Assembly: GCA_934646835.1 (NCBI GenBank)
Contig: CAKUES010000001.1
Location: forward strand, 42,090 to 106,089
Source of the DNA: an uncultured Coriobacteriales bacterium
GTDB taxonomy: Bacteria; Actinomycetota; Coriobacteriia; Coriobacteriales; QAMH01
Reading direction: 5' to 3'
Length of the DNA: 64,000 nt
Each line of letters begins with the position of its first letter. Position 1 is the stretch's first letter. The translations under genes were made by a program, and so were the position numbers. This document shows positions 18,648 to 52,987 of the stretch, in pieces. Under the pieces are notes generated by a model. That model saw nothing but the letters and a program-made list of their open reading frames with translations. It searched no databases and was not told where the DNA came from.

Positions 18648-18989
18648 ATGAGCGAGAAATGCTGCATTGGCGACGGCAGCCCCACGGAGGAACTCACCTC
18701 GTTTGACGTCAACCCTGCATCCGCAGACCAAATGGCCGCCCTCTTCAAGGCGCTTGGCGACAAGCGCCGCCTCGAGATCATGGAGATCGTCGCCGATGAA
18801 GGCGACGCCTGCGCCTGCGCGCTGCTCGACGAGCTCGAGATCAGCCCCTCCACCCTGTCGCACCACACCCGCATCCTCACCCAAGCCGGCCTGCTCAACT
18901 GCTACCGTAAGGGCAAGTGGGCCCACTACCTCGTCAACGAGTCCGGCGTCGAGGCCGCCTGCGCGCTCTTGGGACGCCTGGCCAAATAG
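18648..18989 (+). CDS. arsR: ArsR/SmtB-family metalloregulator
   Basis: HTH region LGDKRRLEIMEIV...DACACALLDELEISPSTLSHHTRILTQAGLL with a C-x-C in the position of the ELCVCDL site, plus an N-terminal CC. AAGGGGGAG lies before the ATG. Confidence 0.85.
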   Translation: MSEKCCIGDGSPTEELTSFDVNPASADQMAALFKALGDKRRLEIMEIVADEGDACACALLDELEISPSTLSHHTRILTQAGLLNCYRKGKWAHYLVNESGVEAACALLGRLAK

Positions 18990-19007
18990 AGCGTCAAGTA
19001 TCGAACC

Positions 19008-21425
19008 ATGACCACCCATCCATCTGCATGCCAAGGCTGCTCGGCCTGCTGCGCCGTCCTCGTCGAAGAAAGCGACGGTGTGATAACGGCCGTGAAGGGC
19101 AGCCCCGCCTCCCCCGCCACAGGCGGCGCAGTCTGCCCCGCACTGCAGATCACCTTGCAGCAGCTTGCCGACCCCGACCGCGTGACGACGCCGCTGCTGC
19201 GCACCAATCCCGTCAAGAAGCGCGGTGAAAACCCCAGATTCAAGCCTGTGAGCTGGGACCTTGCGCTCGACCTGATTGCCGAGCGCATGCTCGAGCTGCG
19301 CCGCGAAGGCAAAGGCGAGCGCTTGGTCGTGAGTCGCGGGCGTTGCACGGGTATCTCGAACCTGCTCTTCAAGGCACTGCCGGACATCTTCGGCACGCCC
19401 AACCGCATCACGCACGACGGCATCTGCGCGGAAGCCGAGAAGCTCGCCTGCGGCAGCATGGACGGCATCTGGGATTACCGCGACTTCGACTTTGCCAACG
19501 CGAAATGCATCGTCTTGTGGGGCGCAGACCCACTTGTCTCCAACCGCTTCAAATCCATCGCCAACAAGCTACTTCCCAAGCTCGCAGAAGACGTGCGCGT
19601 CTTCGCCGTCGATCCCCATCTCTCCTACACCGCCACGCGCCTGGGCACTGACTGCTGGGTGCCCATCATCCCCGGCACCGACGGCGCGCTGGCGCTCGCA
19701 ATGGCCCACGTCATCCTGATCGAGGGCCTGTGGAGCAAGGACTACGTCGGCGATTTTGCCGACGGGTGTAACCGCTTCGAGCCGGGCGGCGAGGTCGACC
19801 CCGCTTGTTTTGAGGAGCGCGGCACGCTCGGGCTGGTCGACTGGTGGAACAGCGAGCTGCGCTGTCGTACGCCACAGTGGGCGGCACCGCTTTGCGGCGT
19901 GTCAGTCAGCCGCATCGTCGAGATGGCGCGTGTCCTTGCCGCAGCCGGGAGCCGCAGCATCTCCTGGATTTCCCCCGGCGTCACCATGACGGCGCGTGGT
20001 CTTGCGAGCGGCATGGCCTGCCACGCCCTCAACGCCCTCATGGGCTCGATCGACAGCGCTGGCGGCGTAAGGCGCCTACCCCTGCTGGGCTGCGCGCCAT
20101 GGCCCTCGACCGAGCCGTACCAAGACACCGAGGCACATCGCACAAACGCCTGCGAGCCCGTCGACCAGCGCTGCCACCGGGGCCTCATGGCTGCTAAGGA
20201 CGGCGGCATCCACGCAAACGCACTCACCGACAGGCTGGCCGACGCCATCTTGAGCGACGAGCCCTACCCCGTCGAGATGATGATCGGCTATTGGAACAAC
20301 TTCGCGTTCTCCTGCAGCGATACGCAGCGCTGGGAGGAGGCGCTGGCAAAGCTGCCGTTCTTCGTCCACGTGACCACCAATATCTCGGAGACCTCATGGT
20401 TTGCCGACCTCGTCTTGCCGGCAAAGAGCCACCTCTACGAGAGCTGGGGCTACGCCGTGAGCCGTATGCAGGGTCATAGCTGCGTCTGCCTGCAGACCCC
20501 CGCCGTCGACGCGCCGGGCGAGGCGCGCGCAGACGAGAGCGAGTTTCCCTTCATGCTCGCTCAAAAGCTCGCGGAGAAGGGATTCCCTGCACTGCTCGAC
20601 TACTACCGAGATTGCTTCCCGGAGGTGCTGACGGGTAAGGTGCCGAGCAACGGCACCGAGCTCGGCCGCAACGCCGTGCAGCAGATCACGCGCCCCCTGT
20701 GGGAGGCCGCAGGCGGTTGGGAGTGCTTCTTGAGCAGCGGCGTTGCCGAGGGCATCGGCGCCAAAGCCCCGCTGCGAGCAGCGGGAGAGATCACGGAGCT
20801 TCCCACTCCCAGCGGGCGCTTCGAGTTTCGCAGCTCTGTCATCGCGCGCATGCTCGCGGAGTACGCGACGCCCCACGGCATCAGCCAGCAGCAGGCCGTG
20901 TCAGAGCTTGGTTACGAGTGCAGCCCGCAGCTGCTTGCCCTACCGCATTGGGAGGCGCCGGCACGTGTTGGCGATGCTGCCAACTACCCGCTGGTGTTCA
21001 GCCAACACCGCGCCTACGCGAGCCTCGAGGGGCGCTCTGCGAACACGGAGCTCTTCCAGAGGATGAAGGGTATGGACCCCGGCGACGAGGCCTGGGGCGA
21101 CGTGCTCAAGGTCCATCCCGCAGACCTCGCGAGGCTGGGTATCGAGGATGGGGCGATGGCGCGTCTGGTGTCTCCCATCGGCAGCGCTGCCATCAAAGTC
21201 CGCGCATGGGAGGGCGTGCTGCCCGGCGTCGTCTCCAAATGCTACGGGCAGGGGCATTGGGCGTACGGGCACATTGCGGCTGCCGACTTCGAGGAAAGCA
21301 TCCCCCGCGGTGTCAACGCCAACGAGCTGATTCCCGCTGTCTACGAGGGAATCAGCGGCGCTACCGCACGTCATGGCGGCGTCATGCGCGTACGCCTCGA
21401 GCAGTTGGACGACACACTGTCGTGA
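19008..21425 (+). CDS. molybdopterin (bis-MGD) oxidoreductase, ArrA/Psr-type, with no Tat signal (predicted cytoplasmic)
   Basis: N-terminal FeS motif CQGCSACC...C, Mo-ligand block HDGICAE, and the conserved blocks IIPGTDGALALAMAHVIL and GQGHWAYGHIAA. It is a clear paralog of 42676..45267 but starts MTTHPSACQGC without an RR leader. Confidence 0.8.
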   Translation: MTTHPSACQGCSACCAVLVEESDGVITAVKGSPASPATGGAVCPALQITLQQLADPDRVTTPLLRTNPVKKRGENPRFKPVSWDLALDLIAERMLELRREGKGERLVVSRGRCTGISNLLFKALPDIFGTPNRITHDGICAEAEKLACGSMDGIWDYRDFDFANAKCIVLWGADPLVSNRFKSIANKLLPKLAEDVRVFAVDPHLSYTATRLGTDCWVPIIPGTDGALALAMAHVILIEGLWSKDYVGDFADGCNRFEPGGEVDPACFEERGTLGLVDWWNSELRCRTPQWAAPLCGVSVSRIVEMARVLAAAGSRSISWISPGVTMTARGLASGMACHALNALMGSIDSAGGVRRLPLLGCAPWPSTEPYQDTEAHRTNACEPVDQRCHRGLMAAKDGGIHANALTDRLADAILSDEPYPVEMMIGYWNNFAFSCSDTQRWEEALAKLPFFVHVTTNISETSWFADLVLPAKSHLYESWGYAVSRMQGHSCVCLQTPAVDAPGEARADESEFPFMLAQKLAEKGFPALLDYYRDCFPEVLTGKVPSNGTELGRNAVQQITRPLWEAAGGWECFLSSGVAEGIGAKAPLRAAGEITELPTPSGRFEFRSSVIARMLAEYATPHGISQQQAVSELGYECSPQLLALPHWEAPARVGDAANYPLVFSQHRAYASLEGRSANTELFQRMKGMDPGDEAWGDVLKVHPADLARLGIEDGAMARLVSPIGSAAIKVRAWEGVLPGVVSKCYGQGHWAYGHIAAADFEESIPRGVNANELIPAVYEGISGATARHGGVMRVRLEQLDDTLS

Positions 21426-21527: not shown

Positions 21528-21613
21528 GCAGTCAACACTCCCGTCAGGCTGATTTGTTGACCAAGCCATGCTTGGCATGGTCAACAAATCAGCCTGACGG
21601 GAGTGTTGACTGC
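21528..21613. repeat. 86-nt near-perfect hairpin
   Basis: The 36-nt arm gcagtcaacactcccgtcaggctgatttgttgacca (21528-21563) is perfectly complementary to 21578-21613. The inner gcca-tgct-tggc extends the stem. Confidence 0.85.
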
Positions 21614-21944: not shown

Positions 21945-22283
21945 ATGGAAACCTATTACAACCCCGCTGACCTCGCCAAGTTCTCTGCAGAGGGCGTCGG
22001 CTCCGCCGCCCCCGAGCTCTGGGAGAAGTACATGGGCTACTACGGCTCCGTCTTCCAGGACGGCGCCCTGACCGCCCGCGAGAAGGCCCTCATCGCCGTC
22101 GCTGTGGCAGCTGCCGTCCAGTGCCCCTACTGCATCGACGCCTACACCAACACCCTGCTGCAGGACGGCTGCGACGCAGACGAAATCATGGAAGCCATCC
22201 ATGTCGCCAACGCGATCCGCGGCGGCGCATCCCTCGTCCACGGCGTCCAGGCCGTCAACATCATCGAGAAGAACGAGCTGTAA
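21945..22283 (+). CDS. carboxymuconolactone decarboxylase (AhpD-like) family protein, arsenosugar-biosynthesis-associated type
   Basis: AhpD-like CxxC (AAVQCPYCIDAYT), about 110 aa, immediately upstream of ArsS as in the TIGR04169/TIGR04167 pairing I recall. Confidence 0.8.
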   Translation: METYYNPADLAKFSAEGVGSAAPELWEKYMGYYGSVFQDGALTAREKALIAVAVAAAVQCPYCIDAYTNTLLQDGCDADEIMEAIHVANAIRGGASLVHGVQAVNIIEKNEL

Positions 22284-22372: not shown

Positions 22373-23401
22373 ATGTCCCAGTTAATCGATAGGATTGCAA
22401 ACGATCCTGAGCTCAAGGCGGCGATGGCGGCGTTTCCGCCCTTTGTCGAGCGCGTACCGGAGAAGTACCGCGCAAGCCTCGACGAGCTCGACGTGTTGCA
22501 GGTCAACGTCACGCGCCAGTGCAACATCGTCTGCAAGCACTGCCACCTCGACTGTCATCCCAATCGCACGGAGCACATGTCGCGCGAGCACCTCGAGCAG
22601 TGCCTCGACGTCTTCGAGCAGCGCGGCTTCAAGACGCTCGACATCACCGGCGGCGCTCCGGAGATGAACCCGGACTTCGAGTGGTTCATCCGCGAGGCGG
22701 GCTGTCGCAACATCCCCATGATCGTGCGCAGCAACCTCATCATCCACGAGGAACCCGGTTACGAGCACTACCCCGCGCTCTTCGCGCAGCTCGGCATCAA
22801 CGTCGTGGCGTCGCTTCCCCACTACCGCGAGCGCAACATGGAGAAGCAGCGCGGCGCGGGCACCTTCATGCCCGTCATCCACGGCCTGCAGCGCCTCAAC
22901 GCGCTCGGCTACGGCAAGGGCGAAGCGGGCAAGAACGCCGCAGGTCAAAAGCTCCAGCTTGACCTTGTCTTCAATCCGTCCGGCATCAACATGCCACCCG
23001 ATCAGGCGACCATGGAGGCCGAGTACAAGCGCCGTCTCAAGGCAGACTTCGACATCGAATTCGACAACCTGTTCACCTTCACCAATGCACCGGGCGGTCG
23101 CTTTGCCATGGCGCTCATGAAGGCCGGCAAGCTCGACATGTACATGAACAAGCTCATCGGCGCGTTCAACCCGAACACGGTCGAGGGCATGATGTGCCGC
23201 ATGGAGTACTCCGTCGCCCCCGACGGCCATCTGTATGACTGCGACTTCAACCAGGCGGTGGCGCTGCCTTGTGCCGACGGCCGCATGATCGGCGACCTGC
23301 TCGACCCCAACCAGCCGCTCAAGCGCCGCATCTGCTTTGGCAACCACTGCTACTCCTGCACGGCCGGGGCAGGCAGCAGTTGAGGCGGCAGCACAGCGTA
23401 G
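22373..23401 (+). CDS. arsS: radical SAM (seleno)protein ArsS, arsenosugar-type; in-frame TGA at 23381-23383 read as selenocysteine
   Basis: Radical SAM motif CNIVCKHC and Cys-rich C-terminal domain CFGNHCYSCTAGAGSS. The track ORF stops at the TGA, but the frame continues GGC GGC AGC ACA GCG TAG, giving ...GSSUGGSTA. A hairpin follows. The family assignment is firm; the Sec extension is less so. Confidence 0.75.
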
Positions 23402-23455: not shown

Positions 23456-23535
23456 CCTGTTATTGCGGCCATGGCAAGCGCAGACTGAGGAGGCCTGGTT
23501 GCGGCCACGGCAAGTGCAGGCTGGGGCGCCTGGCG

Positions 23536-23684
23536 AACAAAAAGTGCACGAAGTGTTAAGGGTTTCGGCAAGTGGACGAGTAGACGGCGATTTCCACTTG
23601 CAAAACCGCAGGTCACAGCGTTGCCGATTCTTGGCTACTCGCCTGCTCGCCGAAACCCTTAACACTTCGTGCACTTTTTGTTCG
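23536..23684 (+). repeat. family A palindromic element, copy A2
   Basis: TIRs gaacaaaaagtgcacgaagtgttaagggtttcggc / gccgaaacccttaacacttcgtgcactttttgttc, with the core in plus orientation. Confidence 0.85.
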
Positions 23685-23819: not shown

Positions 23820-24458
23820 CTACTTGCCGCCGAGGGGGATGAACATGGTCTCAGGGTTGCCGTCCCATTTGTCCTTGGCACCGATGATCGCGTTGTGCAG
23901 CATCTGTGCGCGCGGGGTGATGAGCTGAGCGGCAAACCCGAGCTCCTTGCGCATGTCGCAGACCATGAAAGAAGCCTTGCCGGCGTTCTTCTTGATGGCC
24001 TCGACGTCTGCGCCGGTGGCCTTGGCTTTCTCAATCGCGTTGGCCATGTCCGGGTAGCCGACGGTGATGACGGGAATCTTGAGGAACTCGCAGGCATCCT
24101 GCGCCTCTTCCAGATCCTCGACGAAGATATGCAGGTGATTGAAGCCAGGCTCGCCCTCCGTGTTGATCTCGCTGAACATCGTGGGCACGTCGAAGGGAAC
24201 GGGCTCGACTACCTCGATGGTGTGGCTTCCCCAGGCACCGTAGGCAGCGTGAAACTCCAAGCCCGTGCAATCGACTTCCTCACCGCGGTAAAGCAGTTTG
24301 GAGAAGGTGTTCGTTGTGTAGAAAAACGGGCCGGAACCAAAGAGGCGGTTGTGGTCGGTCATGAACTTGCGCCAGTCCTTTGCATAAAAGCCCAGCATAT
24401 GGACCCAATCGCGCCCCTTGAAGTAATCCGTGTAGTCCTTGGCAAGAACCTCGCTCAT
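23820..24458 (-). CDS. VOC (glyoxalase/bleomycin-resistance/dioxygenase) family protein
   Basis: Two betaalphabetabetabeta-like modules (HMLGFYAKD..., FNHLHIFVEDLEEA...). The start is taken at MSEVLAKDY (24458); the track N-terminus is Arg/Ala-rich and non-coding in appearance. Confidence 0.7.
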   Translation of the reverse strand: MSEVLAKDYTDYFKGRDWVHMLGFYAKDWRKFMTDHNRLFGSGPFFYTTNTFSKLLYRGEEVDCTGLEFHAAYGAWGSHTIEVVEPVPFDVPTMFSEINTEGEPGFNHLHIFVEDLEEAQDACEFLKIPVITVGYPDMANAIEKAKATGADVEAIKKNAGKASFMVCDMRKELGFAAQLITPRAQMLHNAIIGAKDKWDGNPETMFIPLGGK

Positions 24459-24540
24459 GATAATCACGTCTTTCTTGACAGGGCTTGCAGCCTCAGGCCT
24501 CAAGCCGCAAGCCGAAAGCCGCAAGCCCAAGCCTGCGTTG

Positions 24541-25371
24541 CTAGTCGATTTGCTTTGCGGTGGTCAGGCCGAACTTCCCACCGTCGAGGATGAGGTCGCA
24601 TCCTGTGAGGTAATCGTGACCGGGGGCGAGCAGATGGGCGATGAAATCAGCCATCTCATCCGGGTCACCCAGGCGTCCGGCAGCAGTGCCCTTGGCGATG
24701 CCTGCGATGACCTCAGCAGAAGACTCTCGCAGCATCGGGGTGTCGAACGCGCCCGGCGCGATGGAGAAGATCTGGCAGCCCTTACGCCCAAAGCGCATGG
24801 TATTGGCCCTGGTGTAGTACTGGGTGAAGGTCTTGGAGATGGGATAGTAGAGGTAATCCTCTCCCATGTGCTTCATGGCCTCGGGAACCTCGCGGTTTTG
24901 GATGGCCACCTTGACTTTCTCGAAGAACTCCGGGTCAGCGGTGTTATCCCACAGCTCCTTCTCCTCTGGCGTAGGCTGGACAAAATACCCGGTGATAGAG
25001 GAGAAATTCACGAGACGAGCGCCGGCTTCCATGTAAGGGAAGAACGCCTCGACAAAGTTGACCGTGCCTACCATGTTGACGCCGATGATGAGGTCGGCAC
25101 CACCTGCGTCCACGCCGGCAGCGTTGAGAACGTTGCCGAGCGGTGCGATGCTTGCGGCATAGGCGGCGAACTCGTCAAGAGATGCGCGGTCGGCGATGTC
25201 GACGGTCTTGCCAAAGGCCTCGACACCGGCCTCCCTCAGTGTCGCCAAGGCGTTTTCCAGGCGCTTCTCGTTTCGTCCGCCGACCAGCACGGGACCGTAC
25301 TTGCCCAAGGCAATTGCAGTTGCCAGACCCATTCCAGAAGTTCCACCGGCGATAACTTGCAGTTTCTTCAT
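24541..25371 (-). CDS. SDR-family oxidoreductase
   Basis: Rossmann motif VIAGGTSGMGLA and a typical SDR length. AAAGGAG lies before the ATG. Confidence 0.85.
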   Translation of the reverse strand: MKKLQVIAGGTSGMGLATAIALGKYGPVLVGGRNEKRLENALATLREAGVEAFGKTVDIADRASLDEFAAYAASIAPLGNVLNAAGVDAGGADLIIGVNMVGTVNFVEAFFPYMEAGARLVNFSSITGYFVQPTPEEKELWDNTADPEFFEKVKVAIQNREVPEAMKHMGEDYLYYPISKTFTQYYTRANTMRFGRKGCQIFSIAPGAFDTPMLRESSAEVIAGIAKGTAAGRLGDPDEMADFIAHLLAPGHDYLTGCDLILDGGKFGLTTAKQID

Positions 25372-25459
25372 GATGCTCCTTTGGTGTTGGAGAACCGGGC
25401 CGGCAATAGCCCGGTTCTCGATTTGCGAAGGTGCTAAACAGCAGGTGCAAGGCCCTTCT

Positions 25460-26923: not shown

Positions 26924-27052
26924 TCGCTACCTCCCTCTTGAGTTAGCTGTCATTGATGGGAATCAAAACGTGCTACCGTAAGGAAAGCCTTGCGAGACGA
27001 GGCTTGTCGGCGGGATCTCGGTTTGCGGCTGGGTACCGCCTTCTGCTTCTCG

Positions 27053-27826
27053 CTATGCGAGCTCTCCTCCGTCGACAACCAGATGTTGTCCGTTCATAAA
27101 GCTCGAGGCGTCGCTTGCCAGATAGAGCACTGCATTGGCGCAGTCGTCGACGTTGCCGTAGCGCCCCAGGGGAATCTTGGCGATGGTTGCGTTGATATAA
27201 GCCTCCATCTTAGTTGCCCCGTGAGTCATGTCGGTGTCGATGAAACCCGGATACAGGGTGTTGACGCGCACGCCCTTGGGACCGAGCAGCTTGCCCCACT
27301 TCTGGGTAAGGGCGCGGATAGCTCCCTTGGTAGCCGTGTAGGCAGTCGAGCCGGCGGCATGCCACGACGCAAGCGAACCAATGGGGATGATGGCGCCCAC
27401 GCCGTTTTTGGAGCACTCCTCCCAGCCGTACTTGACCATAAAGAAGACGCTGTCGAGGTTAACCGCCATGATGTTGCGCCAGTTCTCCGTATCGAAGGCA
27501 TCGGCCATGCTACGTTCGGACAAGCCCGATATTCCAGCGGCAAGAACCATGATGTCCAGGCGGCCAAAGTCAGCCAGGCACTTCTCCACGGCGGCCTTGC
27601 AAATCTCCTCCTGAGATGCATCGCCCGCAAAGTAAGATGCCTCGCCTCCTGCGGCCTCGATCTGCGCCACGGCCTCTTGGAGCTTTTCCTCGCGACGTGC
27701 CACCAAGAAGACCTTCGCACCGTGTTCGGCGAGGATCTTGGCGCTTTGGTTGCCGATACCGTGCGAGCTCGCACCGGTGATCAAGGCAACGCGTCCGGTA
27801 AGGTCGTAGAAGTCCCTGCTTGTCAT
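27053..27826 (-). CDS. SDR-family oxidoreductase (classical, FabG-like)
   Basis: TGRVALITGASSHGIG cofactor motif, an NAAG-like LAAGISG motif, and a catalytic region with Y..TK (STAYTATKGA). Confidence 0.9.
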   Translation of the reverse strand: MTSRDFYDLTGRVALITGASSHGIGNQSAKILAEHGAKVFLVARREEKLQEAVAQIEAAGGEASYFAGDASQEEICKAAVEKCLADFGRLDIMVLAAGISGLSERSMADAFDTENWRNIMAVNLDSVFFMVKYGWEECSKNGVGAIIPIGSLASWHAAGSTAYTATKGAIRALTQKWGKLLGPKGVRVNTLYPGFIDTDMTHGATKMEAYINATIAKIPLGRYGNVDDCANAVLYLASDASSFMNGQHLVVDGGELA

Positions 27827-27913
27827 TTCCCTCTCCTCTCAAAATGAAAGCCCGCCCGCAATGCCGGCGGGCTTTGACCCTAATGTCTGCAGGGACACGA
27901 TGCCCTGCAGAAC

Positions 27914-28444: not shown

Positions 28445-28542
28445 GTGATCCTCCCAATCTGGCCGCTTGCGACGCTGCATTGCTGCCGCAAGCGGCCTTG
28501 CCCCCTTGAGGGACTTGCTCTGCTGAGAAACAGCCAAGGTCG

Positions 28543-28842: not shown

Positions 28843-28844
28843 TG

Positions 28845-29648: not shown

Positions 29649-29667
29649 AATCTTGTCCTCTCTCCTC

Positions 29668-32481: not shown

Positions 32482-32549
32482 CTCTATGAACGTGAGGTTT
32501 TCAGTTTTGCGGATTAGGAGGTTTTACGGTTAACAAAACGACAGAACTG

Positions 32550-45505: not shown

Positions 45506-45575
45506 TTCATGACTGGCGGAAGTCACCCCTGTGCTCACAGGGAATCGCCACCTCGTGAGAAAGAGTCCTACTCAA

Positions 45576-46373
45576 ATGAAAATCGCAAAGACCCTCGTCG
45601 GTGAGATCATCGGCACCTTCATGATGTGCTTTCTGGGCATCGGCGCTGTCGCGACCGCGACCCTGTACGGCGCACTCACCGGCCCTGGCCAGATCGGCCT
45701 CGTCTGGGGTATCGCAATCGCGCTGGGCATCTTCATGACCCGCAGCCTGTCTGACGCGCACTTCAACCCTGCCGTTACCCTGGCCATGTGCATCTCCGGC
45801 CGCAACAAGTGGTCCGAGCTGCCCGTCTACTTCATCGGCCAGTGCATCGGCGCCTTCCTCGGCGCTGGCGCCCTGTGGATCCTCTTCGCCGACTCCGTCG
45901 CCAAGAACCTGGCAAACGCCGGCCTGACCATGTCCACCAACTCCATCGGCTCTGCCGCCACCATCTGGGCCGAGGTCTTCCCCAACAGCTCCCAGGCCAT
46001 GATCTCCATGCAGGGTGCAATGTTCGCCGAGGGCTTCGCCGTCTTCATCCTGTGCCTGGTCATCCTCGTCGTGACCGACAAGAACAACGAGGGCGCCCCC
46101 ACCGCAGCACTCGCACCGCTGTTCATCGGCCTCACCGTCACCGTTCTGATCAACGTCGTCGGCCCTCTGACCGACGCTGGTCTCAACCCCGCCCGTGACC
46201 TCATGCCCCGCGTGGTCGCGATGATGGTTGGCTTCAAGACCGTTGCCTTTGGCACCAACGCCTTCAACGTCTGGATGGTCTACACCGTCGCGCCGTTCAT
46301 CGGCGGTGCTGTTGCAGCCCTGCTGTATCGCTTTGGCCTCACTCGCATGTTTGAGGACAAGAACGAGGCCTAA
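45576..46373 (+). CDS. MIP-family channel (aquaglyceroporin-like)
   Basis: SDAHFNPAVTLAM and DAGLNPARDLMPR. The start is taken at MKIAKTLVGEIIG (45576). Confidence 0.9.
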   Translation: MKIAKTLVGEIIGTFMMCFLGIGAVATATLYGALTGPGQIGLVWGIAIALGIFMTRSLSDAHFNPAVTLAMCISGRNKWSELPVYFIGQCIGAFLGAGALWILFADSVAKNLANAGLTMSTNSIGSAATIWAEVFPNSSQAMISMQGAMFAEGFAVFILCLVILVVTDKNNEGAPTAALAPLFIGLTVTVLINVVGPLTDAGLNPARDLMPRVVAMMVGFKTVAFGTNAFNVWMVYTVAPFIGGAVAALLYRFGLTRMFEDKNEA

Positions 46374-46699: not shown

Positions 46700-47450
46700 C
46701 GGGCTGAAATCAGCACCACCCCTCAAAGGGGTGGTTTGCTCTGGGCCTATAAGGCCAAGGTTTCCGGGCAGCGCCTCAAGGCGCTGCCCTTCACTTCGTT
46801 CAGGGCGCTACCGCCTTTGACTCTTGGGTGCCGCACAAAGCGGCTGCTGTCCCAGCTACTTCCTCTTGAACGGGTCCTCGTACTCCTTGACGCTCAACCG
46901 GTCCAGGGCGATGTCGTGCATCTCCTGCTCCCGGATGCACTTGACTATCGTGGCCTCGTTGAGGCCGACGGTGCTCACGTAGTACCCCTCTGCCCAGAAG
47001 TGCCTGTTGCCGAACTTGTACTTCAGGTTGGCGTGCCTGTCGAACATCATCAGCGCGCTCTTGCCCTTCAGATACCCGACGAAGGAGCTCACGCTGATCT
47101 TCGGGGGTATAGCCACAAGCATGTGGACGTGGTCGGGCATCAGGTGCCCCTCTATTATCTCGACGCCCTTGTACCTGCAGAGGTTCCTGAATATCTCCCC
47201 GAGGGACTCCCTGTACTGGTTGTAGATCACTTTTCGCCTATACTTCGGTGCGAACACGATGTGGTACTTGCACATCCACTTCGTGTGCGACAGGCTGTTC
47301 GCCTTGTTCGCCATATGGTGGCCGCCTCTCTATCCGTGGCCGATGCGTCCTGAACAAACGAATCGTAACCCCGGCCGGCGGCCGCCACCCACCCGGTTGG
47401 GCATAGCCTTCGACGCGCACCCGCATAGCGGGTGGTTTCTTGTGTCGCGC
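46700..47450 (-). mobile_element. IS200/IS605-family insertion sequence (IS200-type, tnpA only); boundaries approximate
   Basis: A single Y1 transposase gene flanked by same-orientation subterminal hairpins, each followed by gggtggttt (46716-46734 ccacccct-caa-aggggtgg; 47418-47434 cacccgc-ata-gcgggtg). The size of about 0.75 kb fits IS200. Confidence 0.65.
46856..47314 (-). CDS. tnpA: IS200/IS605-family Y1 (HUH) transposase TnpA
   Basis: KYHIVFAPKYRRKV, HUH motif PDHVHMLV, catalytic Tyr region FWAEGYYVSTVG; 152 aa. Confidence 0.92.
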   Translation of the reverse strand: MANKANSLSHTKWMCKYHIVFAPKYRRKVIYNQYRESLGEIFRNLCRYKGVEIIEGHLMPDHVHMLVAIPPKISVSSFVGYLKGKSALMMFDRHANLKYKFGNRHFWAEGYYVSTVGLNEATIVKCIREQEMHDIALDRLSVKEYEDPFKRK

Positions 47451-47479: not shown

Positions 47480-47629
47480 AAATCAAAAAGTGCGCGAAGT
47501 GTTAAGGGTTTGAGCGGGTTATCGAGTAGCCGAAAATCGGCAACGCTGTGACCTGCGGTTTTGCGAGCGAAAATCGCCGTCTACTCGGCAACCCGCTCAA
47601 ACCCTTAACACTTCGCGCACTTTTTGTTC
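47480..47629 (-). repeat. family A palindromic element, copy A6 (core inverted)
   Basis: Core cgagtagccgaaaatcggcaacgctgtgacctgcggttttgcgagcgaaaatcgccgtctactcg, with the same TIRs. Confidence 0.85.
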
Positions 47630-47722
47630 GCAGGGCGCCCTGAAATCGCCGCCTGAGCGCAAAAAGCCGCCGCCGCAGGCATCGCTTGCCCGCGGCGGCG
47701 GCTCGCTCGCACCAGAGAGGCG

Positions 47723-48442
47723 CTACTTGCTCGGGAAGTACGGGCACTGCTCGCGCAGGCACTGGGCGTTGCCGCCGCAGAAGGTGCAGGTCACCTTCTC
47801 AGGGCGCTCCATCTGCACGTTGAAGCGCTCGTTGAGGAAGTCCGTGGCATCGAGCACGGCCGTGAAGCCAGTGCGCTTGCAGCAGCGCGGGCCACCCACA
47901 TCCGCCAAATGCCCCAAGACCGTCGAGGTCAGGCGCTGGCACTGCGCCCACTCGCTTGTTGCCATGGGCGTCGAGCCGTTGATAATGCTGAGCGCCTGGC
48001 CAACGCTGGTCGCCGCGCCACAGCAACCCCAGAAACCGCAGGATCCGCCCGGTACCTGCAGGCTGCGGGCCACGAGCTCTTTGAGGCCCGCCTCCAGATC
48101 CATAGCGCCGCCGTCAATCTTGCCGCCGGCGTTGACGTAGGCCGTCATAACGGAGGCGCCGATGAGCGTGTGGTGCTCGGGACCGTTGGGATAGACGGAC
48201 TTGTCGCTCATGATCTGCTGCAAAATCTCGACCGCGTTGGTCGAGGCGCATGTGGGGCAGAACTCGAGGCCAAAGTCCACACCGCCGCGACGATGACAGT
48301 CGTTGCAGACATAGTGCCCCTTTGAGCACGTGGTCTTGCCCATCTCCTTCTTACCGCAGATAGCGCAGGTCTGCTCGGCTGCCTCGTTCGCGTAGACGAG
48401 CTCGCTTCCGCAGATCAGGCAATTGGGCGCTCCTTGTGACAT
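47723..48442 (-). CDS. Cys-rich protein with N-terminal zinc-ribbon, long paralog of 39009..39557 (possibly DUF5714-like)
   Basis: CLICGSEL...CAICGKK...CSKGHYVCNDCH, then GGSCGFWGCCGAATSVGQALS and VTCTFCGGNAQCLREQCPYFP. The start at 48442 has GGGGAGGG 6 nt upstream. Confidence 0.65.
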   Translation of the reverse strand: MSQGAPNCLICGSELVYANEAAEQTCAICGKKEMGKTTCSKGHYVCNDCHRRGGVDFGLEFCPTCASTNAVEILQQIMSDKSVYPNGPEHHTLIGASVMTAYVNAGGKIDGGAMDLEAGLKELVARSLQVPGGSCGFWGCCGAATSVGQALSIINGSTPMATSEWAQCQRLTSTVLGHLADVGGPRCCKRTGFTAVLDATDFLNERFNVQMERPEKVTCTFCGGNAQCLREQCPYFPSK

Positions 48443-48520
48443 GCCAAACCCTCCCCTTCTCTCGATGCAGCCGCAAACGCGGCGACTTACCAACAGTTTC
48501 CAGCTCTCCTGTGACGTGTC

Positions 48521-49573
48521 CTACATCCACCTTATCGCGTGCTCTTTGAGCGCGTTGATCAACCAGTTGAGCAGCGTGACGACGACGCCCACTGTGATGA
48601 TGCCAGCAAGCACGTTCACGTAGTTCGCAAAGTTCGTGTAATTGATGATGTAGTAGCCCAAACCAGATTTTGCACCGAGCATCTCCGCAAACGTCAGCAT
48701 CATGATTGCAGACGTCAGCTGCGCGTTGAGCCCAGACAAGACACCGGGGATCAGATACGGCAAAATCACCGAGCACACCATCTCCCATTTTGTGAGCTCA
48801 AGCATGCGGGCAGACTCGATGATGCGGCGATCCATGGAAGAAACGCGCACAATCGTCCCCAAAAACGTAGGCCAAAACAGTCCGAGGAAGATGACCGTGG
48901 CCGACGCCAGGCGAAAAGTCGGCATGAGCGCAACCAGATACGGAGCGAAGACGATGGAGGGAATCGGTGCGAGGACGCGGGCGATAGGTGCGAGGACGTT
49001 GCACAGCGATGGCGTCCAACCAACGACAGCGCCGAGCAGCACCCCGGCAAAAATCGAGGTCACAGCTCCCATAAGAAGCAGCTGGATCGACGAGCCGATG
49101 TGAACGAGCAAGTCCTTCCACTGAGTCGCGAAAACGTTGAACACCGCCTCCGGAGCAGGGACGAGCACGGGGTGCATCATGGCGAACTTGGTCGTCGCAA
49201 GGTCCCACATCGCGAGTAGCGCCCAGACAATGATGATGATCCACGAGGCCGAGACGGAGCTGTCTCCCTGCTGGGAGTCCGCGTCCTTGCCACATCCGAG
49301 AAGCCGGCTCAAATAAAGCAGCTCCATAAACCCAACCGAGACCAGGAGGGGGACGCAGCTCGGAACCTTCTTGGCTCCAGGCAACAAGATGATGACGACG
49401 AGCGCGGCAAGGAACAGATGGCTTGCGACGACCATCATGCGGCGCTTGCGTTTGCTACGATCGCGCATCTCCTTCTCCTGGGCCTCACAGCATGCGATGA
49501 CATCGTCGGATATGAGGTTCTGGACGACTTGGGGCTCATCGGCGCCGATGTTTTTGATGTTCGTCATGCCCAT
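48521..49573 (-). CDS. ABC transporter permease (NitT/TauT-type, SsuC/TauC-like) with extra N-terminal region
   Basis: A BPD-type permease core with the EAA-like loop SSMDRRIIESARMLELTKWEMV. The start is ambiguous (ATG 49573 or 49567). Confidence 0.85.
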   Translation of the reverse strand: MGMTNIKNIGADEPQVVQNLISDDVIACCEAQEKEMRDRSKRKRRMMVVASHLFLAALVVIILLPGAKKVPSCVPLLVSVGFMELLYLSRLLGCGKDADSQQGDSSVSASWIIIIVWALLAMWDLATTKFAMMHPVLVPAPEAVFNVFATQWKDLLVHIGSSIQLLLMGAVTSIFAGVLLGAVVGWTPSLCNVLAPIARVLAPIPSIVFAPYLVALMPTFRLASATVIFLGLFWPTFLGTIVRVSSMDRRIIESARMLELTKWEMVCSVILPYLIPGVLSGLNAQLTSAIMMLTFAEMLGAKSGLGYYIINYTNFANYVNVLAGIITVGVVVTLLNWLINALKEHAIRWM

Positions 49574-49581
49574 ACCCCCCC

Positions 49582-50361
49582 CTAATCCTCGTCCATGTAA
49601 AACAGACCGAGCAACTCGTCGCGCAACTCGTGGTAGCCGGAAAGCGATATGAAGTCACCGGACGTGCGGGGGCGAGGAAGGTCGACCTCGATCACGCGCT
49701 CGATGTGGCCCGGACGCATGAAAACGATGCGGTCCGCCAAAAGAATCGCCTCGTCGAGGTCATGCGTGACAAACACCGCCGTGCGGCTGTTGTCCCCGTC
49801 GTTCCAGACCTCCTCGAGAAGCGCCTGCAGCTTGGCACGGTTGCGCGCATCGAGGGCGCCAAAGGGTTCGTCCATCAGCAGTATCTCGCTCTCCATGGCC
49901 AAGGCGCGGGCAATCGCGACGCGCTGTTGCATGCCACCGGAAAGCTGAAACGGATATTTGTCCGCAGAATCCAACATTCCTACCTGCGCCAACGCAGATT
50001 TTGCACGACAGAGTGTCTCGTCTTTTGATAAGCCTTTGCCGTTTTTGGAATGCTCGATACTGAAGGCAACGTTTTTGATAGCAGTCATCCACGGGAAGAG
50101 CGAGTAATGCTGAAACACCATGGCGCGGTCAGACCCGGGACCACTAACGGGCTTCCCATTTGCCACGATACCGCCCACTGTCGGTTTCTCGAGACCGGCG
50201 ATGAGGTTGAGCATCGTCGTCTTTCCACAGCCGGAATGGCCGATAAGGCAGACGAACTCCCCTTGCTTGATCTGCAGATTCGCGTCCTCTATCGCAAGAT
50301 GCGTTTGGCTGGCGTCCTTGTAAGCAAATGACATGTTCGATATCTCGATAACGTTTGGCAC
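49582..50361 (-). CDS. ABC transporter ATP-binding protein (NitT/TauT-type)
   Basis: Walker A GHSGCGKTT, signature LSGGMQQR, Walker B ILLMDEPFGALD. The GTG at 50361 (VPNVIEISNMSF) is preferred over the track start. Confidence 0.9.
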   Translation of the reverse strand: MPNVIEISNMSFAYKDASQTHLAIEDANLQIKQGEFVCLIGHSGCGKTTMLNLIAGLEKPTVGGIVANGKPVSGPGSDRAMVFQHYSLFPWMTAIKNVAFSIEHSKNGKGLSKDETLCRAKSALAQVGMLDSADKYPFQLSGGMQQRVAIARALAMESEILLMDEPFGALDARNRAKLQALLEEVWNDGDNSRTAVFVTHDLDEAILLADRIVFMRPGHIERVIEVDLPRPRTSGDFISLSGYHELRDELLGLFYMDED

Positions 50362-50505
50362 GTGAGTCCTTCCAGACACCGCTGATAACAATCGCCCTGC
50401 CTGTGCTGCCTGGGAAAACTTCCTGACAGCAGAACCGCAGGGCAAAAACAGCCTGCCGAAAAAGGGCAAAAACTCCTCTTTCGGCAGGCGTCTTTGGCAA
50501 ACCTC

Positions 50506-51648
50506 TTACTTGCCGAGGGTGTTGTGGGTCTTATAGGTCTCGAGCAAGCCGTTGTAGAAGTCGGCGTTCTCGCCGCGTTCGATGAGCGTGTCGAGCGCCT
50601 TCTTGTAGACGGTGGAGTCGACGTGGTCCTCCATCTTGCACTCGGTGTTGGCGTCGATGTTGCCCGTCTCCTTCATCACCTCGTAGAAGTTGCAGACGGC
50701 ATCCGTGTAGGGGTCGAGCTCGATGATCATCGGGGTCTTGTAGTCATCGGTGCCGTAGATGACGTTCTCGACATAGGCCTTGTCCTGGCCGGAGTAGTCG
50801 ACAAGCGCTTTGATGGCACGCTTGCGGTCGTTAGTGATGATCTCGAGGCCGCGCAGCTCGGCGATCATGAACTTAACGAGGGCAGAAGCCTTGTTCTCGA
50901 GGGAGTTTTTGGAGGTCGTCTGACGGCAGCAGGGGAAGTCAGGCTCGAGGTCGCCCACATGCATAGAGGTGGTGACGCCGGACTTGGCGGCGATATAGCC
51001 CTGGCCGGAGTTCAGGAAGCCGCAATCGCACTCGCCCTTGGCGACAGCCTGGATGATGGACTGCTGGTCGGACATGATGACCCAGTTGTCGGAGTTGTAC
51101 TTGCCGGCATCGTTGAGCAGGCCCTGCATAACAAGATGGCCGGTCTCCATGGGGAAGTACGCGACCTTGGCGTCGGCAAAGTCCTTGATCTTGACGTACT
51201 TGTCCTTGTTCTTGGGAAGCACGATGCACTCGGAGCCCTCTGCGATAGTGCCGCCAAAGACGACGATGTTCTCAACACCCTGGGCGACGAAAGTGCAAGT
51301 GGGGATAACACCGAAGGGAAGGATGTCGATCTTGTCCTCGGAAACTGCCGTTGCGCCATCGGAGAGGTTGGCGACAGTCTCGAAGGTGACGTTGAGCTTC
51401 TCCTCCTCGAACAGGCCCTCCTGCTTTGCAACGCAGATGCCGGCGATCTTGATGTCCTTGCCGAGCAAAGCGCAGCTCAGGTCCTCGGTCTCAGTGGAGA
51501 TCTCGATCTCCTTCGCGGTGTTCTTGTCAGAATCGGCGCCGCTGGAGGCATTGGAGCCGCAGCCGGTAATCATGGCAGCGGAGCCGGCGACAGCGGCAGT
51601 TGCCAAACCGAGCTTGGCAAAGTCACGACGAGAAATGGTCTTGGTCAT
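50506..51648 (-). CDS. ABC substrate-binding lipoprotein (NMT1/THI5-like, NitT/TauT family) with Tat-type signal
   Basis: MTKTISRRDFAKLGLATAAVAGSAAMITGC (RR motif plus lipobox). AAGAAGGGA lies before the ATG. Confidence 0.8.
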   Translation of the reverse strand: MTKTISRRDFAKLGLATAAVAGSAAMITGCGSNASSGADSDKNTAKEIEISTETEDLSCALLGKDIKIAGICVAKQEGLFEEEKLNVTFETVANLSDGATAVSEDKIDILPFGVIPTCTFVAQGVENIVVFGGTIAEGSECIVLPKNKDKYVKIKDFADAKVAYFPMETGHLVMQGLLNDAGKYNSDNWVIMSDQQSIIQAVAKGECDCGFLNSGQGYIAAKSGVTTSMHVGDLEPDFPCCRQTTSKNSLENKASALVKFMIAELRGLEIITNDRKRAIKALVDYSGQDKAYVENVIYGTDDYKTPMIIELDPYTDAVCNFYEVMKETGNIDANTECKMEDHVDSTVYKKALDTLIERGENADFYNGLLETYKTHNTLGK

Positions 51649-51952
51649 GGTTTTCCCTTCTTATGCGAAACGCACCCTTTTGCAGTATCAACATCTATAT
51701 GCACATCGCTAATAGATGAGGCTAATCATAACATCAGGCAAGGCCCTAGCGGCAGACGAGAGGGCTATAATCTAATCAATTGAAATGTCCTACCGTCCTA
51801 GTAGGGTGATTGGTTTACATCAAAAGTGCACGTCAGCGGCCGACTTGGGCCGCTTGTGCACGCAAGGCGAACATAGGCAGTCCATCGCAATCCGCATGAC
51901 TGCGCGAGTGCTACTATGGCGTTCTTCGACTCAGCACGTGCCAGGAGGTTTC

Positions 51953-52987
51953 ATGATCCGTCTCAACAACGATTACTGCTACAGCGCACACCCCAAGGTT
52001 CTCGAGGCCCTCGCAGCCGATGCAAACAACGCCTACCCCGGCTACGGCACGGACTCTTGGTGCGAGAAAGCAGCCGAGATGCTCCGCGAGCAGGCGCAGG
52101 CGCCGAATGCGGACGTGCACTTCCTCGTTGGCGGCACGCCGGCAAACGTCATCATCATCAGGCACGCGCTGCGCCCGTGGCAAAGCGTCGCCTGCGCGGA
52201 CAGCGCCCACATCAACGTGCACGAGACCGGCGCAGTCGAGCACAAGGGCATCAAGTGCGAGTGCGTCGCTGCCGTTGACGGCAAGGCCGTGGCAGCCGAC
52301 GTCGAGGCGCTGGTGCGCGGCGCGCGCGAGGACAGCGTGGCCGAGCACATCACCCAGCCGGGCATGCTCTACATCTCCATGGCGACCGAGACCGGCAGCG
52401 TCTACACGCTCGCAGAGCTTGAGGCACTGCGCGAGGTCTGCGACAAGTACGACCTCTACCTCTTCATCGACGGTGCGCGCATGGGCTACGGCCTCACCGC
52501 CATCGGCGGCGACGTGACGCTTGCCGACATCGCGCGCCTGGCCGACGTCTTCTACCTGGGTGGCACCAAGCAGGGCCTGCTCTTTGGCGAAGCCGTGATG
52601 ATCCTCAACGACGAGCTCAAGCCGTACTTCCGCAACAGCATCAAGCAGGGCTGCAGCATGCTCGCCAAGGGTTGGCTCGCCGGACTGCAGTTTGCCACGA
52701 TCCTCGAAGACAGCCTCTACTTCGAGCTGGCACGCAAGGCAAACGAGCTCGCCGAGCGCGTAAGGCAGGCTCTCGCCGCCGCCAAGATTCCCCTGGCGTA
52801 CAAGACCACTACCAACCAGGTCTTCGTCGTCTTCACACCCGAGCAGCTCGCGCAGCTCGAGGGCGACTTCGCCTTCGAGATCGAGGGCATGCAGGGCGAC
52901 AACCACATCATGCGCATCTGCACTAGCTGGGCTACCAAGGACTCCGACATCGACGCCCTCGTCGCCGCAATCGAGAAGCTGGCCTAG
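51953..52987 (+). CDS. PLP-dependent threonine aldolase / beta-eliminating lyase family protein
   Basis: VHFLVGGTPANVI and YLGGTKQGLLFGEAV (PLP-lysine region). The start at MIRLNNDY (51953) has AGGAGG upstream. Confidence 0.8.
   Translation: MIRLNNDYCYSAHPKVLEALAADANNAYPGYGTDSWCEKAAEMLREQAQAPNADVHFLVGGTPANVIIIRHALRPWQSVACADSAHINVHETGAVEHKGIKCECVAAVDGKAVAADVEALVRGAREDSVAEHITQPGMLYISMATETGSVYTLAELEALREVCDKYDLYLFIDGARMGYGLTAIGGDVTLADIARLADVFYLGGTKQGLLFGEAVMILNDELKPYFRNSIKQGCSMLAKGWLAGLQFATILEDSLYFELARKANELAERVRQALAAAKIPLAYKTTTNQVFVVFTPEQLAQLEGDFAFEIEGMQGDNHIMRICTSWATKDSDIDALVAAIEKLA

Follow-up and report, generated by a model that had tools for sequence, protein, structure and literature searches.

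How would a gut bacterium handle arsenic if its genes for arsenate respiration and for arsenic methylation lie close together, with neither an efflux permease nor a thiol-dependent arsenate reductase beside them? The question is raised by 64 kb of contig CAKUES010000001.1 from an uncultured Coriobacteriales bacterium, a stretch that we call, over its whole length, the window. An earlier reading of the letters alone (the original prediction) had described positions 18648-52987 as one arsenic-transformation island, organised for respiration plus organoarsenical synthesis or turnover rather than for efflux-based resistance. Our own reading, to which we give about an even chance, is that three modules make up a composite neighbourhood for arsenic handling in an uncultured member of the Eggerthellaceae (Coriobacteriia) from the human gut. 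Module A, on the plus strand, consists of arsR, an arrA paralogue lacking a twin-arginine translocation (Tat) signal, an ahpD-like gene and arsS. Module B comprises a divergent pair of genes for a MIP channel (MIP1) and an arsenic methyltransferase (ArsM1), a minus-strand arr operon and a second MIP channel gene (MIP2) divergent from it. Module C is a NitT/TauT-type ATP-binding cassette (ABC) importer whose terminal gene is the second of two DUF5714 genes.

The window is 100% identical to part of a 165.8-kb human-gut metagenome scaffold (ENA ERZ28613880 scaffold_126), and gut metagenomes from the Hadza contain contigs near-identical to it. Among named organisms, its proteins have their nearest relatives in the Coriobacteriia/Eggerthellaceae (Adlercreutzia, Gordonibacter and Ellagibacter). 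Because spurious open reading frames abound at the G+C content of the window (~60%), genes were called by third-position G+C, and they were annotated with Pfam and NCBIfam. Gene calls and both profile collections recovered every gene that the original prediction had listed, at or very near where it had placed them.

The two molybdenum enzymes at the centre of modules A and B are, by their phylogenetic placement, ArrA-clade paralogues and not Psr, Phs or Ttr. Homologues came from two database searches and 150 representatives clustered at 50% identity; a neighbour-joining tree was built from 173 sequences and a neighbour-joining bootstrap analysis from 48 taxa, with the reference sequences identified by motif. 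In the larger tree, Psr/Phs-like sequences and ArxA-like sequences (GRGWG motif) fell outside, and both window enzymes lay among the ArrAs bearing the RGRY motif. The split between the ArrA group and Arx-like sequences was recovered in 100 of 100 bootstraps, with ArrA of Shewanella ANA-3 basal. Both enzymes belong to a Coriobacteriia-type radiation (bootstrap 95), outside which ANA-3 ArrA branches. Within it, the subclade of the window Tat enzyme (100) is sister (93) to a group made of Adlercreutzia Tat enzymes and a Tat-less clade; the latter is monophyletic in 100/100 replicates and sister to the Adlercreutzia Tat enzymes in 88/100. The original prediction had asked for such a phylogeny and had named a position among polysulfide or thiosulfate reductases as the outcome that would speak against it; the trees gave no Psr, Phs or Ttr placement. 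None of the loci of the cytoplasmic (Tat-less) clade has ArrB or TorD nearby, and among Tat-type loci ArrB is present in nearly all and a TorD-type chaperone in most. The cytoplasmic form is derived from an exported ancestor through loss of the signal peptide and of the ArrB/ArrD partners.

The exported enzyme of module B matches the crystallised ANA-3 ArrA (6CZ7) over its full length (847 bits, about 50% identity), and PF04879, PF00384 and PF01568 are all present. Its operon is compact, with overlapping or closely spaced genes on the minus strand in the order Tat-ArrA, ArrB, TorD-like chaperone, lipoprotein, ArsM-like methyltransferase and DUF5714; the ArrB and ArrD genes thus lie downstream of the catalytic subunit. 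The lipoprotein had no tblastn match in 170 related loci. The two MIP channels, whose genes flank the operon, carry NPARD as their second box, which is the aquaglyceroporin signature.

Module A opens with an ArsR whose C-A-C motif (DACACALL), accompanied by an N-terminal CC pair, stands at what we take to be the position of the As(III)-binding CVC of R773 ArsR. In the following gene, the arsR stop codon ends the open frame 18 nt upstream and the [4Fe-4S] domain begins at residue 1; the enzyme at 19008-21425 therefore cannot carry a signal peptide. This protein has PF04879, PF00384 and PF01568, the architecture of the DMSO-reductase family, and retains the FS0 cysteines C8, C11, C15 and C43, which are invariant across the cytoplasmic ArrA clade. 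It has no ArrB or ArrD partner and, being Tat-less as well, is therefore not a respiratory enzyme of the usual kind. We considered whether it might be exported as a hitch-hiker and rejected the idea: the conserved 206-aa leucine-rich-repeat (LRR)-like protein that relatives encode upstream lacks a signal peptide, and the window has no copy of it. This protein, ~200 aa long, Cys-containing and with a partial match to leucine-rich repeats of the HupY/LrrG type, is conserved in relatives immediately upstream of the cytoplasmic ArrA or close to it (L005 9393-10013, L009 8101-8700, L015/L018 9378-9995, L041 11227-11841 and L097-L102; L numbers denote related loci), where its gene often overlaps the start of the arrA paralogue.

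The last two genes of module A are those for which the original prediction had proposed searches with TIGR04167 and TIGR04169, and both proteins scored above the cut-offs (Table 1). ArsS has the cluster motif CNIVCKHC (CX3CX2C) and a Cys-rich C-terminal DUF3641 domain (143 bits), with the AhpD-like gene immediately upstream. A 520-bp gap separates the cytoplasmic arrA paralogue from ahpD and contains a near-perfect palindrome of ~80 nt at 21535-21612 (GTCAACACTCCCGTCAGGCTGATTTGTTGACCAAGCCATGC / GCATGGTCAACAAATCAGCCTGACGGGAGTGTTGAC); in strain L004 this gap is 84 bp shorter. A DUF2703 thioredoxin-fold protein encoded outside the range of the original prediction is a candidate further member of the system. 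It bears CCC/CCCC runs at both termini, and DUF2703 genes adjoin the cytoplasmic ArrA gene in L005, L009, L012, L015-18, L041 and L097-102.

Two methyltransferases of the ArsM family are encoded in module B, and they differ in their cysteines. Measured against C44, C72, C174 and C224 of CmArsM, ArsM1 has all four conserved cysteines (C26, C53, C148 and C198) and a GGCCC tail, and it aligns along its whole length with the solved ArsM structures 5EVJ and 4FS8, although its score against NCBIfam PRK11873 (175 bits) is below the cut-off of 263. ArsM2 has kept only the equivalent of C174 (C148 of ArsM1) and for that reason was not filed as an ArsM; the second ArsM-like methyltransferase of the original prediction is thus present as a gene, but has lost three of the four arsenic-binding cysteines. 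The C-terminal domains of ArsM1 and ArsM2 are near-identical. The same Cys-depleted type stands beside ArrA in L010, L021 and L141, and in L024, where the copy lacks the last cysteine too. As a single thiol ligand suffices for trivalent dimethylarsenic (DMAs(III)), ArsM2 might act late in methylation, an idea to be tested and no more.

DUF5714 proteins combine a zinc-ribbon N-terminus with an all-alpha core holding seven invariant cysteines. We found 1212 homologues and, among the matches listed, all were from Coriobacteriia; a literature search on the family found nothing. The predicted model of DUF5714b (predicted local distance difference test score, pLDDT, 88) had no fold match in the PDB. 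The 3' half of DUF5714a and the DNA downstream of it, including a repeat element described below (38866-39446), are a duplicate of the DUF5714b region (47581-48160) at 71-82% nucleotide identity, and the tail of the arr operon therefore looks like a mosaic that arose through segmental duplication. A strong hairpin lies at 39605-39638, between DUF5714a and ArsM2.

The pairing of respiration-type with methylation-type genes is not a one-off, because the same genes recur in L010, L021, L024 and L141. L010 encodes an ArrA 69% identical to the window enzyme, with MIP and ArsM-type genes divergent from ArrA-B-D, followed by a DUF4405 membrane protein. In L021 (Adlercreutzia sp. ZJ473), ArsS (319 bits against the cut-off of 300), three ArsM-type genes, ArrA, ArrB and MIP form one cluster, and L024 (Adlercreutzia faecimuris) has DUF5714, an ArsM2-type gene, ArrA, ArrB and MIP. 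The metagenome contig L141 carries MIP, ArrA (71%), ArrB, a TorD-like gene, DUF5714 and an ArsM2-type gene at 84% identity. A MIP gene beside ArrAB is thus conserved in all four. This recurrence of ArrAB, MIP, ArsM, the Cys-depleted ArsM paralogue, DUF5714 and ArsS in Adlercreutzia and metagenomic Eggerthellaceae speaks for a functional link. The combination put forward in the original prediction therefore recurs, but its novelty has to be narrowed, as Arr beside arsM is also found in some Firmicutes (the Desulfosporosinus and Bacillus loci L047 and L071).

The cytoplasmic clade has surroundings of its own. In L008, a cytoplasmic ArrA (61% identity) is followed directly by ArsS, and in L012 another (67% identity) stands behind a PhnD/PhnE-type ABC importer and DUF2703. 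Ellagibacter-type contigs encode, in this order, ArsM, DUF2703, PhnCDE, the 206-aa LRR-like protein and the cytoplasmic ArrA, with an NMT1-type ABC/DUF5714 module alongside. A Gordonibacter locus of the exported type (L011), whose enzyme bears the motif KGRS as does the window Tat enzyme, includes glyceraldehyde-3-phosphate dehydrogenase (GAPDH), ArsP, thioredoxin, ArsR, an NrfD-type ArrC, ArrA, ArrB, ArrD, a PhnD-like ArrX, a histidine kinase (ArrS) and a response regulator (ArrR).

The classical core for which one would look beside these genes was not found. Pfam and NCBIfam detected no acr3, arsB, arsC, arsA, arsD, arsJ, arsK, arsP or arsI among the called genes of the window, and tblastn of the window returned neither ArsP nor NrfD. 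The absence of arsB/acr3, arsC, arsA and arsD noted in the original prediction was thereby confirmed, and it extends past both ends: none of the nine genes is present among those called on the same scaffold over ~7.4 kb beyond the left end and ~8.8 kb beyond the right. These flanks thus lack the adjoining canonical ars operon that had been named as a possible refutation, and no efflux permease and thiol-dependent reductase stand beside arsR anywhere in the window and its ~16 kb of flanks. Two further sets of candidates were considered and rejected. The glyoxalase-fold gene at 27914-28693, a candidate for the C-As lyase ArsI, has a weak methylmalonyl-CoA-epimerase match and lacks the vicinal Cys pair, and the major facilitator superfamily (MFS) transporters, candidates for ArsJ or ArsK, are both of the DHA2/EmrB type. 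With Rfam at gathering thresholds, no riboswitch or other RNA match was obtained in the whole window.

Neither molybdenum enzyme is a textbook ArrA, so that the ArrA-type identity given in the original prediction stands as a clade placement only. Relative to ANA-3 ArrA, both have kept Arg165, His189, Cys193 (the molybdenum ligand), Lys198 and Tyr210, residues whose roles in oxyanion binding and molybdenum ligation we presume from the ANA-3 ArrAB structure. In the ligand region, the Tat enzyme has HSTLCAEVEK...Y and the cytoplasmic enzyme HDGICAEAEK...Y, with Ser190 replaced by Asp across the whole cytoplasmic clade. The motif (R/K)GRY, which we take to define ArrA and to correspond at its end to Arg165-Tyr166 of ANA-3, retains its tyrosine in ~65 of 70 Tat-type ArrA loci from GTDB species representatives. 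Position 166 is S, A, G or H (KGRS, KGRA, QGRG and LGRH) in the subclade of the window Tat enzyme, and C or S in the cytoplasmic clade.

Taken together, these genes could form a pathway to which, as a whole, we assign even odds: arsenate would be respired outside the cytoplasm, As(III) would pass through channels and be methylated and adenosylated in the cytosol, and a reductase derived from ArrA would work in the cytoplasm. The data themselves show gene content, family placement, phylogeny, active-site differences, recurrent synteny and the lack of a local ars core; all substrates and reaction steps of the pathway are inferred. In this scheme, the exported Tat-ArrA/ArrB enzyme, served by the chaperone ArrD, would reduce As(V) outside the membrane, probably in respiration, with electrons from a quinol oxidase encoded elsewhere. 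As(OH)3 would then equilibrate across the membrane through the two NPARD-type MIP channels, and ArsM1 would methylate As(III) in the cytoplasm. ArsM2 and the Cys-rich DUF5714 protein would be accessory and may serve single-thiol species such as DMAs(III), to which ArsS and its AhpD-like partner would add a 5'-deoxyadenosyl group. The ArsR-controlled cytoplasmic ArrA paralogue would reduce intracellular pentavalent arsenic, either arsenate or methylated As(V), which is ArsC's job in classical systems. Module C, a strain-variable importer with the second DUF5714 protein, might act on some related substrate.

A wider and rather doubtful extension concerns the whole cytoplasmic branch of gut Coriobacteriia, which has no Tat signal, ArrB or ArrD and an altered pocket. 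It could be an undescribed intracellular molybdenum-dependent reductase of pentavalent arsenic, either replacing ArsC to feed ArsM and ArsS or reducing organoarsenicals imported by PhnCDE-type transporters, in concert with DUF2703, DUF5714 and a single-cysteine ArsM paralogue, the last of these specialised for later methylation steps. The result would be an efflux-free pathway that shapes arsenic speciation in the human gut.

Several observations weigh against the pathway set out above. Both enzymes score below the NCBIfam NF041714 ArrA equivalog cut-off of 1600 bits (950 for the Tat enzyme and 731 for the cytoplasmic one), and the (R/K)GRY tyrosine is lost in both (KGRS and RGRC, respectively); the substrate may therefore be something other than arsenate, or arsenate together with other compounds. 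KGRS by itself does not abolish an arsenic role, because an enzyme with this motif belongs to a textbook arr locus in Gordonibacter. An electron donor for the cytoplasmic paralogue is not evident, and for the exported enzyme no membrane quinol-oxidising subunit (ArrC/NrfD or DUF4405) was found in the window with Pfam or by tblastn with NrfD, although arrAB without a membrane anchor has a precedent in Shewanella, which relies on CymA (PMC2762525). ArsS adjoins the cytoplasmic enzyme in two lineages only, the window and L008, and the commonest context of the cytoplasmic clade, a PhnCDE-type importer, suits substrate acquisition better than detoxification. An acr3 or arsC gene may lie elsewhere in the genome, beyond the ~80 kb searched. 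The modules are set apart by an unrelated 12.9-kb block that the original prediction does not mention, an IS200 element and repeats resembling miniature inverted-repeat transposable elements (MITEs), and no shared operator was detected in five promoter regions: with k-mers of 9-14 nt and up to three mismatches on either strand, the best motifs were common to three regions, as in shuffled sequences. The single island of the original prediction does not survive these last two results. Nor does its right-hand end: the range to 52987 takes in an enzyme dependent on pyridoxal phosphate (PLP; 51785-52987) whose link to the rest is unsupported, and which was rejected as a member because it stands beside the importer in none of the related loci.

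This patchwork would also be expected if the genes were loosely co-located, a normal respiratory arr operon and an arsM for detoxification, as known from other 'arsenic islands', with resistance provided by acr3/arsC elsewhere in the genome; the cytoplasmic ArrA-like enzyme would then serve non-arsenic or unrelated functions, as would DUF5714, ArsM2 and the ABC importer. Besides the interruptions and the missing operator, such an account can draw on a strain without the ABC importer, on the tens of reductases encoded per Eggerthellaceae genome (10.1101/2022.12.26.521950) and on the Firmicutes loci with Arr beside arsM. It stays viable because the search for the ars core covered ~80 kb and not the whole genome. 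We nevertheless consider it unlikely: in at least six independent lineages, ArsM2-type, DUF5714, MIP, ArsS and DUF2703 genes (45-84% identity) turn up again beside genes of the ArrA clade, ArsR heads the operon of the cytoplasmic enzyme, and ~80 kb of contiguous sequence hold no ars core. Still further from arsenic, the molybdenum enzymes and their Cys-rich partners might act on selenate, selenite, antimonate or tellurate, with ArsS, AhpD, DUF5714 and DUF2703 reflecting selenium-related redox chemistry. NCBIfam does describe the ArsS, AhpD-like, MbdU (DUF5714-like) and DF (DUF2703-like) families as having selenoprotein members, and the active-site motif departs from that of canonical ArrA. This is highly improbable, because a candidate selenium gene, a 'SelD-like' AIRS gene beside a relative, proved to be HypE (453 bits) and was rejected, and because the contexts given by ArsM1, ArsR, ArsP and ArrXSR are arsenic-specific: ArsM1 is a full ArsM with all its As(III)-binding cysteines, ArsR has the arsenic-type CxC motif, and relatives adjoin ArsP and ArrXSR. 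Both enzymes, moreover, fall within ArrA, with the Arx-like and Psr-like sequences outside.

The altered pocket bears on the choice between inorganic and organic substrates. Dietary arsenic that reaches the gut is largely organic, and replacement of the tyrosine by S, A, G, H or C could open the pocket, so that the Tat enzyme, the cytoplasmic enzyme or both would reduce dietary methylarsonate (MAs(V)), dimethylarsinate (DMAs(V)), trimethylarsine oxide (TMAsO) or the dimethylarsinoyl group of arsenosugars, the cytoplasmic clade receiving its substrates through PhnCDE-type or NitT/TauT-type importers. The variability of position 166 agrees with this, as does the PhnD/PhnE-type importer (PhnE 385 bits against a cut-off of 217) that usually precedes the cytoplasmic clade. 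The Gordonibacter locus with KGRS includes the organoarsenical permease ArsP. Methylarsonate is an analogue of phosphonates, and the PhnD-like proteins AioX and ArrX are known to bind or sense arsenic oxyanions (PMC5908839). The same Gordonibacter enzyme, however, has ArrXSR and GAPDH as neighbours, as is usual for systems that act on inorganic arsenate; the oxyanion-binding R165, H189, K198 and Y210 are all retained; and no enzyme of the family is known to reduce an organoarsenical. We regard an organoarsenical-directed role as quite unlikely, although the importer context of most cytoplasmic-clade members and the altered pocket speak for it.

Table 1. Features of the three modules and of the DNA around them (positions in the window; scores in bits)
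Feature	Module	Position	Strand	Evidence and remarks
DUF2703 thioredoxin-fold protein		7099-7845	-	Pfam DUF2703 87
ArsR/SmtB-family repressor, first gene	A	18648-18989	+	Pfam HTH_5; NCBIfam NF033788 76 (cut-off 55)
Cytoplasmic (Tat-less) ArrA paralogue, 805 aa	A	19008-21425	+	Best NCBIfam match ArrA 731 (PhsA 186)
AhpD-like CxxC protein (CPYC), arsenosugar-associated peroxidase-like family	A	21945-22283	+	TIGR04169 165 (cut-off 120); Pfam CMD
ArsS, radical S-adenosylmethionine (SAM) protein	A	22373-23383	+	TIGR04167 367 (cut-off 300); Pfam Radical_SAM and DUF3641
Intervening block, not in system		23820-35819		Unknown protein, short-chain dehydrogenase/reductase (SDR), MFS (DHA2), SDR, glyoxalase-fold, 99-aa protein, molybdenum enzyme beta and alpha, TetR, FKBP-type peptidyl-prolyl isomerase, unknown 351-aa protein
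MIP channel 1	B	36291-37085	-	Pfam MIP 139; NSA then NPARD; divergent from ArsM1
ArsM1, full-length As(III) SAM methyltransferase	B	37326-38372	+	355 to 5EVJ; 284 to 4FS8
DUF5714a, Cys-rich, without N-terminal zinc-ribbon part	B	39009-39620	-	Pfam DUF5714 140; true start probably 39557
ArsM2, ArsM-derived methyltransferase	B	39668-40606	-	SAM motif and ArsM C-terminal domain kept; below NCBIfam cut-offs
Lipoprotein (lipobox LAGC) in arr operon	B	40682-41320	-	Weak DUF5105 match
ArrD, TorD/DmsD-type Tat proofreading chaperone	B	41313-41966	-	Pfam Nitrate_red_del 94; NCBIfam TorD 86 and DmsD 66, both below cut-off
ArrB-like ferredoxin subunit, four [4Fe-4S] clusters	B	41960-42673	-	NCBIfam ArrB best, 225 (cut-off 450), next TtrB 128; Pfam Fer4_11
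Tat-exported ArrA-clade catalytic subunit, 863 aa	B	42676-45267	-	NCBIfam ArrA 950 (PhsA 229); Tat motif RRSFLK
MIP channel 2	B	45531-46373	+	Pfam MIP 139; NPA ... NPARD; divergent from arr operon
IS200-type Y1 transposase, not in system		46856-47314	-	Pfam Y1_Tnp 133; between MIP2 and ABC/DUF5714 module
DUF5714b, Cys-rich, last gene of ABC importer operon	C	47723-48493	-	Pfam DUF5714 197; MbdU-like 143; true start probably near 48442
Permease of NitT/TauT-type ABC importer	C	48521-49573	-	
ATPase of NitT/TauT-type ABC importer	C	49582-50469	-	
NMT1-type substrate-binding protein of NitT/TauT-type ABC importer	C	50506-51648	-	
MITE/REP-like copies		3186-3242, 23535-23591, 34048-34104, 36029-36085, 38766-38822, 47481-47537		

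The third module varies between strains. A Hadza-derived strain lacks the three ABC importer genes, its PLP gene being joined directly to DUF5714b, which amounts to an indel of ~3.4 kb (window 48461-51904 against L096 20837-20950). A palindromic element resembling a MITE or a repetitive extragenic palindromic (REP) sequence (AAAAAGTGCACGAAGTGTTAAGGGTTT ... AAACCCTTAACACTTCGTGCACTTTTTG) occurs six times, the full elements measuring ~120-190 nt. With copies behind ArsS, ArsM1 and DUF5714b and a copy in front of MIP1, the element marks the borders of the arsenic modules and of the intervening block. A second family of intergenic repeats, with the core ATGGCGCCGACTYCGTCTGGCGCCTACG, is found at 3584, 5156, 21438, 33850, 38459 and 46498 (~42-62 nt); its members often form inverted pairs 100-250 nt apart and are candidate MITE ends or a protein-binding site. 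Repeats of the two families border each of the modules.

The intervening block has a cluster of its own at 28845-32355 on the minus strand, encoding a cytoplasmic pyrogallol-hydroxytransferase-like molybdenum enzyme (alpha subunit of 895 aa; beta subunit with Fer4_11 and CarboxypepD_reg). Its neighbours at 24541-28444 and 32550-33356 are TetR, two SDRs, an MFS transporter and the glyoxalase-fold protein, and the cluster probably belongs to polyphenol or aromatic-compound metabolism, which is typical of Eggerthellaceae and unrelated to arsenic. The gene for an FKBP-type (SlyD-like) peptidyl-prolyl isomerase (33193-33777, minus strand) was overlooked by the third-position G+C caller, and the interval from 33.8 to 34.7 kb holds repeats only and no confident gene. 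Directly beyond the PLP gene lies a HigB-like toxin and helix-turn-helix (HTH) antitoxin pair (53287-53948, minus strand), followed at 54038-56320 on the plus strand by a class-II glutamine amidotransferase (GATase_4) and a GCS2-like carboxylate-amine ligase with a weak glutamate-cysteine ligase match. The latter two recall the EgtC/EgtA genes of low-molecular-weight thiol biosynthesis and might thus have a bearing on arsenic chemistry that uses thiols. A 56-nt repeat (GAGGCGAGCGAAGCGATG...) is present three times in tandem (56406-56575) in the interval from the GCS2-like gene to SbcC. To the left of window position 1 (L093 1-8100) are a second NMT1/Phosphonate-bd-type ABC importer, two radical-SAM genes, a 220-aa unknown protein and a Big_2 surface protein.

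The extent to which arsenic from food is reduced, methylated or thiolated before it is absorbed depends on gut microbes. If the pathway proposed here is correct, a common family of gut respiratory specialists respires arsenate and turns the product into organoarsenicals, and ArrA, treated so far as a strictly periplasmic respiratory marker, has a cytoplasmic offshoot. There would then also be ArrA active-site variants that the NCBIfam cut-off and the RGRY motif fail to name, and DUF5714, poly-Cys-tailed DUF2703 and the Cys-depleted ArsM paralogues would gain a testable arsenic context. Because similar loci are present in Adlercreutzia faecimuris JBNU-10 and Adlercreutzia sp. ZJ473, both of which are in culture, the hypotheses are directly testable. 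When open-access papers were searched for Eggerthellaceae genera in combination with arsM or arrA, the only find was a respiration study with the original arrA paper among its references, and we know of no published work linking Eggerthellaceae to arsenic metabolism.

Among known systems, the ArrAB respiratory reductase of Shewanella ANA-3 is one of the closest. The window Tat enzyme shares its domain order, Tat signal, molybdenum-ligand Cys, H189, K198, Y210, ArrB partner and lack of a membrane anchor in the operon, but differs in having KGRS in place of RGRY, a sub-cut-off score, an ArrD chaperone and a Gram-positive gut host. Where the ANA-3 arr-ars island has arsDABC, the neighbours in the window are MIP, ArsM, ArsM2 and DUF5714. 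With the arr loci of Gram-positive bacteria (Gordonibacter L011, Desulfosporosinus, Bacillus and Mesobacillus selenatarsenatis) the window shares the gene order A-B-D, and with the Gordonibacter enzyme also the KGRS motif and the same Coriobacteriia radiation. In contrast to these loci, it lacks ArrC (NrfD), ArrX-S-R and ArsP, its operon is extended by the lipoprotein, ArsM2 and DUF5714, and two MIP channels and an ArsM flank it.

The arsenosugar pathway of cyanobacteria (Synechocystis), which uses ArsM and ArsS, has its counterpart in the adjacent ArsS and AhpD-like genes, both above cut-offs, and the complete ArsM nearby. Here, however, the genes belong to an anaerobic actinobacterium of the gut, the neighbour of ArsS is a cytoplasmic ArrA paralogue under ArsR control, and no downstream arsenosugar or arsenolipid genes were recognised. 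The putative role of the cytoplasmic enzyme, As(III) production in the cytoplasm under ArsR control, is that of the glutaredoxin- or thioredoxin-coupled ArsC, but ArsC is a thiol reductase of 130-140 aa, whereas the window protein is an unrelated 805-aa enzyme of the molybdenum-bis(pyranopterin guanine dinucleotide) (Mo-bisPGD)/[4Fe-4S] type. In the AqpS-ArsC pathway of Sinorhizobium meliloti, an aquaglyceroporin takes the place of the ArsB/Acr3 pump. The window likewise has an NPARD-type MIP in an arsenic locus where an efflux pump would be expected, but it has two such channels, combined with ArrAB and ArsM and not with ArsC. DUF2703, a family of thioredoxin-fold CXXC proteins, accompanies arsenic genes in the arsenate-induced ars clusters of Rhodococcus aetherivorans BCP1 (PMC6514093); the proteins of the window and its relatives differ from these in their poly-Cys tails and, in the relatives, accompany the cytoplasmic ArrA and a PhnCDE-type importer, not acr3/arsC. 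Arr, ArsM, ArsS with AhpD, MIP and ArsR are thus all known kinds, and arr operons beside arsenic resistance genes are well known. What appears to be undescribed is the cytoplasmic ArrA clade with its PhnCDE/DUF2703 or ArsS contexts, the KGRS-type active-site variants of Eggerthellaceae, and the conserved pair of an ArsM2-type methyltransferase and DUF5714 beside ArrAB and MIP.

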